62,525 bases of DNA from a virus (IMGVR_UViG_3300020172_002336:1-62525); one strand, 5' to 3'; positions 9,571 to 13,242 are shown, counted from the first letter of the stretch. Notes: generated by a model not told the origin, from the sequence alone. Numbers and translations are program-made.

Positions 9571-12500
9571 ATGGCGAGACGATTGATTGGACTCGACTTC
9601 GAGACCCACTACGACAGCAAGTTCTACACGCTGCGCAAGATGGACATTCCGTCATACATCTGCGACCCGCGTTTCGAAGCTACGCTCGTTGCCGTCAAGG
9701 AGGGCCACAATCCGGCGTTCATTGTCGACGGACCGGACATCCCCCGTTACCTGCAGGGGTTAGGCGATCCGAAGGACATTACCCTCTACGGGCACAATCT
9801 GATGTTCGACGCTTGCATCGCGTCGTGGATCTACGGCTGGCGTGCTGGGCTTAACATCTGCACGCTGGCGCTGGCCCGCCAAACGATCCAAGCCTACTGC
9901 AGGTCGTTGTCGTTGAAGTCCGTACTTGAGTATCTTCGCCTGCCAGCCAAGGGCGGGTTCCTGTCCATGGTGGATGGGATGCGCCGCGACGACATCATCG
10001 CTGCCGGGTTCTGGCAACAGTACTGTGAGTACGCGGTGGGCGACATCGACGGCGCGTACGGCATCTACCAGCAGCTAGCACCTCTGGTGCCGCCCGAGGA
10101 GCACGTCATCGCTGACATGGTGCTGCGCATGGCGACCGAACCGTCGTTCGATCTGGACCAGCCTCTGCTGCAGGCACATCTGGACGACGTCATCGAGAAG
10201 AAAGAGGAGATGCTGGCGTTCGCCATGATCGGCGGCTCGCTCCGCGGCAAGGAAGACCTCATGTCGAACGACAAGTTCGCTTTGGTCCTCCAGTCGCTGG
10301 GTGTCGACCCTCCCACCAAGATGTCGCCTGTCACCGGCAGGCAGGCGTGGGCGTTCGCCAAGTCCGACGAGGGTATGAAGGAGCTACAGGAGCATCCGGA
10401 CCCCGTTGTGCAGGCAGTTGTCGCGGCTCGGCTGGGGCACAAGACCACGCTGGAAGAAACCCGCACGGCTCGGTTTCTGAATTGCAGTACCCTAACGTTC
10501 CCGGCCTATGGCGTGGGTAAGTTCCCCGTACCCTTGAAGGTAAGCGGGGCGCATACTCATCGGTTGTGTCTGGTGGGTGAAACAATTATTTGCACTTTGC
10601 GGGATAACCGTGTAGTGTACGATCGTCTTGACTGCCTACGCGCTACTGATCTGGTGTGGGATGGCGAGGCGTTCGTGGCCCACGGGGGACTAGCCTATGC
10701 CGGACGAAAGCGAGTTATCACTCACGACGGTGTCACAGGGACGCCCGACCACCGGGTCTTTACCGGGAAAGGGCAACTCGCGCTGGCACTTGCAAAGGCG
10801 CAAGGCGAGGACATTACTCGTGGAGGAGTTCCTGATCCGGCACGGGTCGAAACGACTGTGCACAGGGGAGATCACGTATCATTCCAGAGTGGAATTCCAC
10901 TGCAGCAAGTGCGGGGCCGTTTGTCGGGCCATGTGGAAGGATCTAACGAACCGAGACCGGGTGTTGTGCAAGTCGTGCGCGATTACCGCGCGCATGGCGG
11001 GCGTGAAGCCCTCCACCAAGATGTTAGCCGCTTCGGCCAGACAGAACGTAGACGAAGCTGCCAAGGCGAGAGCGCGGCGGGTAGTGTTACCCTTGCAGGC
11101 AAGCCAGCCGCTGACACGGGAAACGACACGTTCGCAGGCGCGTCGTTTGTCGGTGAGTTGGAGCCCTTCGGATTGGAAGACCGCCTTGACGACGGCTACT
11201 CGTGTGTTCCAGCGATGCACCAACCCCCGCATATCGAGCTACCCGTACTACGGCGGCAGGGGGATCGAAGTCTGGTTTGCCTCGCCAGCGTTGATGGCGG
11301 ACTGGTTGCTGAAAAACTTAGGACCACGACCGCTGGGCCAGTCGCTCGATCGGATCATGTCCAACGGACATTACGAGCCGGGGAACTTACGTTGGGCGAC
11401 GAAGGAAGTGCAGATGAAAAACCGCAATTCATGGAAACATGGGACATAATCGACTGCGGACCTCGCAACCGCTTCATGGCTAATGGCCGCCTTGTTCATA
11501 ATAGCGGTGACTGGAAATATAACGCGCAGAACATGCGCCGCGGCGGCAAACTTCGTAAGTCTCTCAAGGCACCACCCGGCCACACGGTCGTGGTCGGCGA
11601 CGAAAAACAAATCGAAGCGCGCATGGCCGCCGAGTTCAGCGGGCAGGCCGACCTCGTCGAGCAGTTCCGACTGGGCGTGGACACCTACGCCGCGATGGCG
11701 ACCAAGATCTTCGGGTTCGTTGTCGATCGTAAGGTTCACGTGCCGCAGGGGTTCGTCGGTAAGACATGTCTCGGCGCTGACACTCTGGTGTTGACAGATA
11801 GTGGATGGAAGCCTATCCCATACATCTTGGCTTCCGACAAAGTATGGGACGGTATGGCGTGGGTGACGCATCAGGGATTGATCTACCAAGGGGTGAAGCC
11901 GGTACTGACGAAGTACGGCGTGACGGCAACTTCGGACCACGAGATCAGTTTGGGAAGTTCGTGGCTGGAGTGGAGCGCGGTATGCGCGGACCGCCGCCTT
12001 TTCCAGTCGGCAGTCGCGTCGGTTCGTTTACCGTGCTCGGCTACGTCAACCACAAACAAGGCTGGCACCCAATCTGCCAATGCGAGTGTGGGCGAGCGGG
12101 CCGCGTCGACCGGCACAACCTCAAAAGCGGCAAGTCAACTCGGTGCCGTAAATGTTTGGGCGCGAGGCACTCTAAGAACTTTGCACTGTACCGCGACATC
12201 CTGCCTGACGATGCTCACAGACGCCGTCTCGCCAACCGCATCAGGGCCTGCATTGACAGGTGCCACAACCCAAAGAACCGGGTTTACCGCGGCTACGGCG
12301 GGCGAGGCATACACGTCCACGAAGCATGGCGTACTAACATCGGCACGTTCTTGGCCTACGTGCAGTCGTGCGCGGGCTGGGATGACCCGGCTCTCCACAT
12401 GGATCGAACAGATAACGAGAAAGGTTACGAACCGGGCAACATTAGGTTCGTTACCATCACAGGAAACAACCAAAACCGAAGGGAGGTTTGGAAGCTGCAG

Positions 12501-13242
12501 CTTCGCATCGACGAACTTGAAGCCCGTCTACGACATTGCAAATGCGGGGCCGAGACATCGGTTCACGATCCTGACTGATGAAGGGCCGCTGGTTGTCAGC
12601 AACTGCGTGCTCTCGGGCATGTACGGTGTTGGGCCGCCGAAGTTTCGTAGCTCGGTTATTCATCTGTCCAAAGAACAGACCGGCACGAGGATCGACGTCG
12701 ACGTTGATCTGGGGCCGACCGTTACCTCGGAGACCATCATTGAAGCCTACCGTCGTGAGACGTGGGCGATCACTGAGATGCGGAAGCGGCTGAACAACTG
12801 CATCCCGCTGATGGCCCAGCCCGATTGTAACTTCTTCGTCGGGGCAGTGCAGTTCCTCTACCAGAAGATCAAGCTACCAAACGGCCATTACCTCTACTAC
12901 AATAAGCTACGTTTCGACGACACGTCAGGCAGTTGGATCTACGAGTACGCCGGACGCTGGAAACGCATCTACGGCGGTGCTCTTTTGGAGAACATCATTC
13001 AGGCGCTCGCGCGTATCGTGACCATGCACGCGGCGCTGCGCCTGCGCCCCGATCTGAGTAAGTACAACTGGAAGCTGGCACTGCAGGCGCACGATGAACT
13101 CGTCTTGATAGTTCCGAACGACCACGTGGACTGCGCCAAACAACGCCTCAAGGAAGAACTTACCCGGCAGGTAACATGGATGCCCAACCTGCCGGTCGAT
13201 GCTGATATTGGATCAGGCCCCACATACGGAGATGCGAAATGA
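9571..13242 (+). CDS. polA: Family A DNA polymerase with 3'-5' exonuclease, interrupted by two inteins (about 632 aa after splicing)
   Basis: ExoI LDFET, ExoII HNLMFD, ExoIII YAVGD; HTHRL|SG; motif A DEKQIEAR; motif B KT|CVLSGMYG; motif C AHDELV. Confidence 0.95.
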   Translation: MARRLIGLDFETHYDSKFYTLRKMDIPSYICDPRFEATLVAVKEGHNPAFIVDGPDIPRYLQGLGDPKDITLYGHNLMFDACIASWIYGWRAGLNICTLALARQTIQAYCRSLSLKSVLEYLRLPAKGGFLSMVDGMRRDDIIAAGFWQQYCEYAVGDIDGAYGIYQQLAPLVPPEEHVIADMVLRMATEPSFDLDQPLLQAHLDDVIEKKEEMLAFAMIGGSLRGKEDLMSNDKFALVLQSLGVDPPTKMSPVTGRQAWAFAKSDEGMKELQEHPDPVVQAVVAARLGHKTTLEETRTARFLNCSTLTFPAYGVGKFPVPLKVSGAHTHRLCLVGETIICTLRDNRVVYDRLDCLRATDLVWDGEAFVAHGGLAYAGRKRVITHDGVTGTPDHRVFTGKGQLALALAKAQGEDITRGGVPDPARVETTVHRGDHVSFQSGIPLQQVRGRLSGHVEGSNEPRPGVVQVVRDYRAHGGREALHQDVSRFGQTERRRSCQGESAAGSVTLAGKPAADTGNDTFAGASFVGELEPFGLEDRLDDGYSCVPAMHQPPHIELPVLRRQGDRSLVCLASVDGGLVAEKLRTTTAGPVARSDHVQRTLRAGELTLGDEGSADEKPQFMETWDIIDCGPRNRFMANGRLVHNSGDWKYNAQNMRRGGKLRKSLKAPPGHTVVVGDEKQIEARMAAEFSGQADLVEQFRLGVDTYAAMATKIFGFVVDRKVHVPQGFVGKTCLGADTLVLTDSGWKPIPYILASDKVWDGMAWVTHQGLIYQGVKPVLTKYGVTATSDHEISLGSSWLEWSAVCADRRLFQSAVASVRLPCSATSTTNKAGTQSANASVGERAASTGTTSKAASQLGAVNVWARGTLRTLHCTATSCLTMLTDAVSPTASGPALTGATTQRTGFTAATAGEAYTSTKHGVLTSARSWPTCSRARAGMTRLSTWIEQITRKVTNRATLGSLPSQETTKTEGRFGSCSFASTNLKPVYDIANAGPRHRFTILTDEGPLVVSNCVLSGMYGVGPPKFRSSVIHLSKEQTGTRIDVDVDLGPTVTSETIIEAYRRETWAITEMRKRLNNCIPLMAQPDCNFFVGAVQFLYQKIKLPNGHYLYYNKLRFDDTSGSWIYEYAGRWKRIYGGALLENIIQALARIVTMHAALRLRPDLSKYNWKLALQAHDELVLIVPNDHVDCAKQRLKEELTRQVTWMPNLPVDADIGSGPTYGDAK
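10567..11502 (+). mobile_element. Intein 1 (312 aa) in DNA polymerase
   Basis: Starts CLVGET, block B GTPDHRV, ends TWDI...RFMANGRLVHN followed by Ser; removal restores HTHRLSG. Confidence 0.93.
10820..11449 (+). CDS. HNH endonuclease nested in intein 1 in the +1 frame (ORF open from 10697; start uncertain)
   Basis: CSKC...CKSC zinc ribbon, RCTNP...YPYYGGRGIEV...LGPRPLGQSLDRIMSNGHYEPGNLRWAT...Q..NR. Confidence 0.88.
   Translation: MEEFLIRHGSKRLCTGEITYHSRVEFHCSKCGAVCRAMWKDLTNRDRVLCKSCAITARMAGVKPSTKMLAASARQNVDEAAKARARRVVLPLQASQPLTRETTRSQARRLSVSWSPSDWKTALTTATRVFQRCTNPRISSYPYYGGRGIEVWFASPALMADWLLKNLGPRPLGQSLDRIMSNGHYEPGNLRWATKEVQMKNRNSWKHGT
11767..12603 (+). mobile_element. Intein 2 (279 aa) in DNA polymerase motif B
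   Basis: Starts CLGADTLVLT..GWKPI, block B TATSDHEI, ends PVYDI...GPLVVSN followed by Cys; removal restores GKTCVLSGMYG. Confidence 0.93.
11982..12578 (+). CDS. HNH endonuclease nested in intein 2 in the +2 (-1) frame
   Basis: GGAG SD 6 nt before ATG; CQCECG...LKSGKSTRC..C, RCHNPKNRVYRGYGGRGIHV...W, MDRTDNEKGYEPGNIRFVT...N..NRR. Confidence 0.9.
   Translation: MRGPPPFPVGSRVGSFTVLGYVNHKQGWHPICQCECGRAGRVDRHNLKSGKSTRCRKCLGARHSKNFALYRDILPDDAHRRRLANRIRACIDRCHNPKNRVYRGYGGRGIHVHEAWRTNIGTFLAYVQSCAGWDDPALHMDRTDNEKGYEPGNIRFVTITGNNQNRREVWKLQLRIDELEARLRHCKCGAETSVHDPD

Follow-up and report, generated by a model that had tools for sequence, protein, structure and literature searches.

Canonical inteins carry an in-frame homing endonuclease at the position that, in the phage locus described here, is held by an out-of-frame nuclease gene. 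The locus lies in IMGVR_UViG_3300020172_002336:1-62525, a complete phage record (62,525 bp) bounded by direct terminal repeats (hereafter the window, meaning the whole stretch of DNA analysed); the sequencing runs that hold this sequence are freshwater metagenomes. Its family A DNA polymerase (PolA) gene contains two inteins, and inside each lies an intact open reading frame (ORF) for an HNH-like nuclease, offset by +1 in intein 1 and by +2 in intein 2. The best overall explanation, to which we assign a probability of roughly 0.8, is that these are independently translated nuclease genes nested out of frame in two class-1-type inteins, homing by cleavage of intein-less alleles.

Out-of-frame intein endonucleases are already known from preprints of 2025-26. 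Gosselin, Arsenault and Gogarten (bioRxiv 10.1101/2025.01.02.630785) describe actinophage inteins with an endonuclease VII-like (IPR004211) endonuclease ‘in reading frame 3’, together with antisense LAGLIDADG and Vsr-like endonucleases, and propose invasion by free-standing endonuclease genes. As in those inteins, the inteins of the window are contiguous with intact splicing blocks, a same-strand endonuclease ORF with a shifted frame occupies the endonuclease insertion site, the intein's own frame has no stops there and is predicted to yield an unstructured segment, and annotation pipelines miss the nested ORF. That preprint concerns actinophage genes, the polymerase it lists being Pol III alpha, whereas the host gene here is the PolA of a freshwater metagenomic phage. 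The nuclease appears to belong to a different, His-less and PacI-like family rather than being endonuclease VII-like. The two paralogous inteins share a single gene yet differ in offset, one having +1 and the other +2, and split-intein relatives exist at the same site. Phillips et al. (bioRxiv 10.64898/2026.09.14.751524) report an out-of-frame endonuclease in a cyanobacterial dnaX intein, likewise in an overlapping frame and with secondary invasion of a mini-intein as its proposed origin; unlike the window, that case concerns a cellular gene and one intein.

Three further systems share part of the arrangement. In the fractured genes of Dassa et al. 2009 (PMC2677866), split inteins flank a free-standing endonuclease gene with overlaps of 6-69 bp; the endonucleases described there are Vsr-like or GIY-YIG, with HNH types only suggested as able to fracture genes. 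Several relatives of the window polymerase (L068, L056, L120, L042 and L119/L110) have exactly this fractured layout, including the overlap between the endonuclease 3′ end and the C-intein, whereas the window polymerase itself is unfractured and its own frame (frame 0) reads through. The ShiLan domain (Arsenault et al. 2025, PMC11855218) is a hidden out-of-frame HNH in an actinophage DNA methylase and, as here, the frame of its host gene stays open; as described there it has no splicing domain, so the junk remains in the host protein, whereas in the window it would be removed by the intein. Finally, PacI (PDB 3m7k/3ldy) is assigned to group 20 of the His-Me finger nucleases, in which a loop tyrosine between two strands replaces the catalytic histidine (PMC5714182). 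The family in the window is similarly without a catalytic histidine and has an invariant tyrosine (Y149) between an invariant D-R and an invariant N, but PacI is a restriction enzyme rather than a homing endonuclease, and the equivalence of the two tyrosines is a putative one.

Conceptual novelty is therefore limited, because the arrangement itself was reported in 2025-26. An original prediction, made from the sequence of the window, had pointed to a hidden off-frame HNH in a non-intein phage methylase, which corresponds to ShiLan, and had left open whether an intein version was described; the two preprints settle that it was. What sets the present case apart is the PolA host gene, the His-less PacI-like nuclease and the occurrence of two paralogous inteins with different offsets, together with split, decayed, mini and free-standing states at the same sites and a population-level empty allele with a recoded junction. 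A full-text search of open-access PMC and bioRxiv returned no paper on the PolA/PacI-like version, although preprint supplements may list more cases, possibly including PolA.

Two inteins in a phage polymerase gene

The polymerase gene and its inteins are placed as follows.

9571-13242, + strand: family A DNA polymerase gene, a single 1223-aa ORF that leaves an extein of 632 aa once both inteins are removed.
10567-11502, + strand: intein 1, 312 aa, at site AHTHRL|SGDW, with Cys1, block B GTPDH and ends CLVGE...LVHN followed by Ser+1.
11767-12603, + strand: intein 2, 279 aa, at site FVGKT|CVLSGMYG, with Cys1, block B TSDH and ends CLGAD...VVSN followed by Cys+1.

The identity of the polymerase follows from family matches (Pfam DNA_pol_A, E 2e-15; phrog_17 DNA polymerase, E 8e-47) and from alignment with homologues. 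We take the site of intein 1 to resemble a TGRLSS-type Pol I sequence and that of intein 2 to correspond to polymerase motif B. The limits of the inteins were set by alignment with homologues and by motif positions. In a word-indexed protein search, polymerase homologues carried one, both or neither intein: in P0001, which is 97% identical, precisely intein 1 is missing; in P0006 and P0007 it is precisely intein 2 that is missing; and P0005 and other homologues have mini-inteins without the middle segment. The original prediction had placed two inteins between 10567 and 12603 with splicing ends CL...HN|S and CL...SN|C, and both the alignment and the precise absences bear it out.

Inteins 1 and 2 are paralogues, with 39-41% identity over their first ~70 residues, and both have the terminal residues of class 1 inteins (C...HN|S and C...SN|C). 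The intein block B motif is defined by TxxH; intein 1 has T-P-D-H here and intein 2 has T-S-D-H, and T55, D57 and H58 are invariant in all eight aligned inteins. The serine before the terminal asparagine of intein 2 is shared with P0001 and P0002.

Nuclease genes nested out of frame

Within the two inteins we located the following nested ORFs and candidate initiation signals.

10697-11449, + strand: HNH-like ORF 1, nested at offset +1; it is 250 aa long if ATG 10697 is the start and 209 aa long if GTG 10820 is.
10807-10811, + strand: Shine-Dalgarno-like GAGGA, 8 nt 5′ of the alternative ORF 1 start GTG 10820, putative in function.
11982-12578, + strand: HNH-like ORF 2, nested at offset +2; it is 198 aa long when read from ATG 11982.
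11967-11975, + strand: Shine-Dalgarno-like GGAGTGGAG, ending 6 nt 5′ of ATG 11982, putative in function.

Both ORFs are intact and lie wholly inside their inteins, and the intein frame is stop-free throughout. Each carries the expected motifs: a zinc ribbon (CxC...CxxC), RCxNP, YGGRGI and DR...YEPGN.R. To this extent the original prediction holds; for ORF 1 its frame and its end at 11449 stand and its start is uncertain. GTG 10820 is conserved in three of three loci, and GGGGGA 7 nt 5′ of ATG 10697 is a rival start signal. The frame of ORF 2 is open from 11805 (11805-12578, 257 aa), with ATG 11982 internal to it; from the sequence context, the most likely start is this ATG behind GGAGTGGAG. 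A conserved upstream ATG at the intein ‘WDG’ motif (xxA-TGG) was considered as a general ORF 2 start and rejected, because a stop follows it in locus L046 and precedes it in L039.

The 3′ ends of the ORFs run into the splicing domain. The ORF 1 stop codon (TAA) falls within the C-terminal splicing block of intein 1 (TWDII). The last ~15 codons of ORF 2 overlap the conserved C-terminal block VYDIANAGPRHRF of intein 2, and these codons are therefore truly dual-coding. The C-terminal tail of ORF 2 (12520-12578, RLRHCKCGA...) is conserved in many database relatives, and marks which ‘free-standing’ database proteins are really intein-nested.

Two-frame openness of both inteins exceeds chance. Over each nested ORF there are no stops in the nuclease frame and none in the intein frame, and 13 and 15 stops in the third frame. 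When the codons of the two ORFs were shuffled synonymously (5000 trials), the intein frame stayed open in 0.42% and 0.34% of shuffles.

Related polymerase loci

Alignment-based scans provided 160 related PolA loci (80 metagenome and 80 viral), numbered L below; a single-protein scan of viral contigs gave no related loci. An intein of the window's family is present in 16 of the 160 and absent from ~144. All 16 intein loci hold a nuclease homologue, and in none of the 16 is it in the intein frame. A contiguous polymerase with an intact out-of-frame ORF occurs at offset +1 in L081, L003 and L134, and at offset +2 in L004, L048, L046, L121 and L039. The offset at each site is as in the window, +1 at site 1 (L081, L003) and +2 at site 2 (L004, L048, L046, L121, L039). 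The ORFs of L081 and L003 are 50-53% identical to ORF 1 and lie in homologous inteins at the same site; those of the five site 2 loci are 42-50% identical to ORF 2.

All nine contiguous cases, in which the window counts twice and L121 is not counted separately, are free of stops in both the nuclease frame and the intein frame, the third frame having 10-24, and their intein frame is open in 0-4% of 5000 synonymous shuffles. The arrangement extends to a cultured virus: Vibrio phage 97.13 (GenBank PP179306.1; L163:488-4066) has a 1192-codon open frame with an intein 2-like insert and, in the +2 frame, a 250-codon ORF that is 47% identical to ORF 2; the public record of this phage bears no annotation of any kind. 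Such nested genes are missed by standard gene callers, because these allow one frame per strand.

Fractured polymerases occur in six loci with five distinct sequences (L068, L056, L120, L042 and L119/L110, the last two apparently being the same sequence). The N part, in frame f, breaks off ~105-110 codons into the intein, after which come the nuclease ORF, in frame f+1, and the C part, in frame f+2. This last part begins at a conserved ATG, preceded by a Shine-Dalgarno-like sequence, and encodes a 26-residue C-intein (MLVPVYDI.NCGP..RF.ANGK.VHN) followed by serine; the nuclease ORF runs at its 3′ end into the beginning of the C-intein gene. Neither polymerase fragment can include the nuclease in this layout, so it must be a separate gene, and this is the strongest comparative argument for regarding the homologous ORFs of the window as separate genes too.

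Two loci (L001 and L002) carry a decayed intein 1 copy with an internal deletion and a stop, a state matching what a homing cycle would be predicted to produce. In this shortened intein (L001:3497-4105, L002:3426-4034), the +1-frame ORF has lost the YGGRGI core by deletion and carries a stop; the polymerases have exteins ~90% identical to those of the window and lack intein 2. Free-standing ORFs of the same family (RCxNP, YGGxGI, DR..Y.PGN) are found at L006:1848-2501, L060:2025-2504 and L093:2082-2501, each ending exactly at the start codon of an intein-less polA. Their position hints at where the nuclease genes that entered the inteins may have come from.

Selection on the two frames

The layout is kept by selection, with the nuclease frame more strongly conserved than the intein frame. 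In pairwise alignments built on the nuclease frame, amino-acid identity was highest in that frame in 13 of 13 pairs (0.42-0.63 versus 0.18-0.43), and nucleotide differences were most frequent at its third codon position. For an unsaturated comparison we set the window against a 97%-identical allele, a 12,398-nt contig of run X4 that encodes P0001; the changes reconstructed match the P0001 alignment. Within the ORF 2 overlap there are 11 differences. Of these, 5 are synonymous and 6 non-synonymous when the nuclease frame is read, with five mostly conservative amino-acid changes and a ratio of non-synonymous to synonymous differences per site (pN/pS) of 0.36. For frame 0 the split is 3 synonymous to 8 non-synonymous, with L>P, W>C and S>P among the latter, and pN/pS is 0.98. 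The flanking exteins differ by 16 synonymous and 3 non-synonymous changes.

Predicted folds of the intein and of the nuclease

We modelled the frame-0 product of intein 2 with AlphaFold2 (AF2) from eight aligned inteins. The predicted local distance difference test (pLDDT) score is at least 90 for both ends (residues 1-92 and 249-279) but drops under 50 in the middle (93-211 and 213-248). The confident part is a Hint fold, with a Z score of 14.3 to the Mtu RecA intein (2imz_A) over 114 residues and a root-mean-square deviation (rmsd) of 3.1; a fold search with the intein 2 ends gave 29 chains with Z of at least 8, all inteins or Hint-type domains. The segment between the ends corresponds to one further feature.

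12043-12510, + strand: intein 2 frame-0 linker, residues 93-248, with no stops and predicted to be unstructured.

In the fold search this linker had no match above Z 3.5, and the frame-0 linker has no family match in Pfam or NCBIfam; the frame-0 inteins have none in NCBIfam. The claim that the frame-0 middle is non-domain filler thus agrees with the model and searches for intein 2.

The nested ORFs match the PHROG HNH endonuclease family phrog_374 (E 1.8e-19 for ORF 1 and 2.2e-33 for ORF 2), and further match the HNH families phrog_3377 and phrog_2081. Among cluster representatives, ORF 2 has 60,640 relatives; the best 150 span 123-834 aa and include no intein-bearing polymerase. Searches of the ORFs against Pfam and NCBIfam gave only sub-threshold matches to unrelated families (ZZ zinc finger, E 0.0097; FmdB zinc ribbon, E 0.13; citryl-CoA lyase, E 0.047), and ORF 2, when searched against PDB sequences, hit nothing beyond zinc ribbons of ribosomal protein L24 at chance level (E 0.24). 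Across 57 sequences of the family, the invariant columns are four cysteines, R93, R108, D141-R142, Y149 and N153, and both copies in the window keep all 10. HNH_3-type proteins have D-H where this family has D-R. We therefore call the protein HNH-like rather than a canonical HNH, because the family lacks the catalytic histidine; for the HNH identity first proposed, the PHROG matches speak in favour, and the missing histidine and missing Pfam and NCBIfam HNH matches speak against.

An AF2 model of ORF 2 built with 57 relatives has a mean pLDDT of 91.8, with strands at 139-142 and 154-157 and then a helix at 159-164, the elements compared with a beta-beta-alpha-metal fold. An exhaustive structural aligner gave PacI as the best fold match, at a middling Z of 5.6 (rmsd 3.4 over 88 residues, 19% identity, model residues 67-171). 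For the N-terminal zinc-ribbon part the matches are SH3/Tudor-like barrels, at Z 4-5. Foldseek returned no PDB match at E <=0.001. Endonuclease VII or I-HmuI-type structures were absent from the best 50 fold matches listed, which does not exclude them; the ORFs had no Pfam Endonuclease_7 match at E up to 0.1, and phrog_1035 (‘endonuclease VII’) matched ORF 2 only at E 0.0025. By analogy with PacI, Y149 may possibly play the part of the loop tyrosine.

Sequence accuracy and an intein-less allele

Contigs from runs X1, X2 and X3, which belong to two studies, match the window with no gaps and at most one differing letter. X2 and X3 are from the other study, and one of the three confirming runs may be the source of the window itself. 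X3 and X4 leave parts of the stretch uncovered, and such gaps were not interpreted, apart from the X4 contig that bridges the intein 1 site.

In the X4 allele, 945 nt are skipped and 9 other letters stand in their place, equivalent to exact removal of the 936 nt of intein 1. Intein 1 thus shows a natural presence/absence polymorphism between 97%-identical alleles. At the flanks of the intein (10564-10566 and 11503-11508), six of the nine junction nucleotides differ in the X4 allele while the same Leu-Ser-Gly is encoded, against a background of 46 differences in 1406 nt (binomial probability 9e-8). This hot spot could be explained by import of the intein plus its flanks from a divergent donor (co-conversion), or by escape of the empty allele from cleavage through synonymous recoding. 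For homing by cleavage and gene conversion, the polymorphism and these junction differences are indirect evidence.

Proposed mechanism and alternative explanations

We propose that a free-standing nuclease gene would have invaded a mini-intein at the usual endonuclease position. The nuclease is predicted to combine an N-terminal zinc-ribbon/beta-barrel domain with a PacI-like His-Me-finger (‘HNH’-like) core. Ribosomes translating the polymerase would pass through the nuclease gene in frame 0 and make a ~150-190-residue unstructured linker; the Hint domain formed by the two ends of the intein would then splice the exteins, and the linker would be discarded. Selection on the essential polymerase would keep frame 0 stop-free, and selection for mobility would keep the nuclease frame intact. 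Internal initiation on the polymerase mRNA, at ATG 11982 for ORF 2 and at ATG 10697 or GTG 10820 for ORF 1, would yield free nucleases. In co-infections these would cut intein-less polymerase alleles near the insertion site, and repair would copy the intein and its nuclease gene into the cut allele. A separately encoded nuclease gene sheltering in an intein, with the intein's own frame read through as junk, was the core of the original prediction, and it is supported at the sequence level by conservation, by pN/pS, by the predicted fold and by the fractured relatives.

Several points weigh against this reading. Translation of the nested ORFs is deduced from the sequence, and where it would begin is uncertain, each ORF having more than one candidate start codon. 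The runs listed as holding the window include no RNA run, which says nothing about expression. The alignments behind the identity comparison favour the nuclease frame on which they were built, and the pN/pS contrast comes from 11 differences, although its direction is as expected. Intein 2 has serine as its penultimate residue (SN, 12598-12603), where the other seven of the eight aligned inteins have His-Asn; to judge from sequence, the missing histidine might slow C-terminal cleavage. The frame-0 fold model covers one of the two inteins, intein 2. No Pfam HNH model matches any of the 57 family members, NCBIfam likewise gives none, and no histidine is invariant or near-invariant among them, the arginine of D141-R142 standing at the catalytic-histidine position. 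With these gaps and the middling Z to PacI, catalytic competence rests on the PHROG names and a weak fold match.

The most serious rival would have the nested ORFs be relics of an invading nuclease gene, unexpressed or inactive, and open because they are young or because of constraint on the polymerase frame. The lack of a canonical catalytic histidine and of any Pfam HNH match would fit such relics, as would the decayed copy in L001 and L002, the absence of an RNA run among the listed holders and a pN/pS of 0.36 that, from so few differences, is a weak sign of constraint. We nevertheless consider relics unlikely: ORFs of 208-271 codons are intact at 42-63% amino-acid identity in all nine contiguous loci, while the third frame accumulates 10-24 stops, and all 10 invariant columns are kept in both copies. 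Constraint on frame 0 cannot explain the open nuclease frame, because frame 0 is the less conserved, with a pN/pS of 0.98. The same figure, with its radical changes (L>P, W>C, S>P), bears on whether the frame-0 middle is instead a functional domain, such as a splicing regulator, so that both frames encode working proteins throughout. Frame 0 is indeed kept open, and the Hint blocks overlap the nuclease N and C termini, giving short truly dual-coding stretches at both overlap ends; yet residues 93-248 have pLDDT below 50 and no family or fold match, identity is lowest in frame 0 and mini-intein homologues do without the whole segment, which leaves a working frame-0 domain highly improbable.

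Programmed ribosomal frameshifting into the nuclease frame and back, producing a canonical single-chain intein, is geometrically conceivable in that the nuclease ORFs overlap both Hint halves, and the offset is constant within each site. It would, however, take two opposite shifts per intein, differing between the inteins (+1/-1 and +2/-2), and under frameshifting frame 0 need not stay open, yet it is open in nine of nine loci against 0-4% of shuffles. The C-intein of the fractured relatives has its own ATG and Shine-Dalgarno-like sequence, and ORF 2 likewise offers an ATG of its own, 6 nt downstream of GGAG; on these grounds, which include no search for slippery sites, we regard frameshifting as very unlikely. 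Assembly or sequencing indels that put an ordinary in-frame HNH intein out of frame deserve mention because the window is a metagenome-assembled genome and one confirming run may be its own source, but four exactly compensating indels would be required. The X2 and X3 contigs from the different study match with no gaps, and Vibrio phage 97.13, as well as 14 loci that were assembled independently and keep the nuclease ORF intact, show the same offsets. Compensating indel errors, one of the ways in which the original prediction could have failed, are in effect excluded, since contigs of three runs from two studies are gapless; another, a lack of selection in the nuclease frame, runs against the pN/pS values of 0.36 and 0.98 from 11 differences. 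Independently translated, nested nuclease genes remain the reading we prefer.

A wider proposal builds on this reading and is offered tentatively, as a possibility that we consider rather less than even. A single intein and nuclease lineage would occupy orthologous PolA sites in all the states expected when an endonuclease invades a mini-intein (mini, read-through, split, decayed, and free-standing beside an intein-less polA), contiguous and split forms would interconvert by gain and loss of a stop, and the nuclease would represent a new class of His-less, PacI-like, tyrosine-dependent homing endonucleases.

Implications

The PolA family offers a natural series of mini-inteins, read-through inteins, split inteins and free-standing endonuclease genes, so that the long-standing ‘splicing first, endonuclease later’ model of how inteins arose can be compared directly on real sequences. 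The family is also a clear case in which selection on an essential gene keeps a second frame of ~600 nt open though it encodes nothing useful. The natural split inteins, with their 26-residue C-intein, may be of use in protein engineering, and Vibrio phage 97.13, isolated with a known host, would be a tractable experimental system.

A coexisting intein 2 variant

Run X1 contains, besides the contig that matches the window, a separate 887-nt contig that shares only positions 12560-12589 (30 nt) and continues into unlike sequence reading DILNAGSRNRF in frame 0. That sample thus also contains a second, diverged version of the C-terminal block of intein 2.

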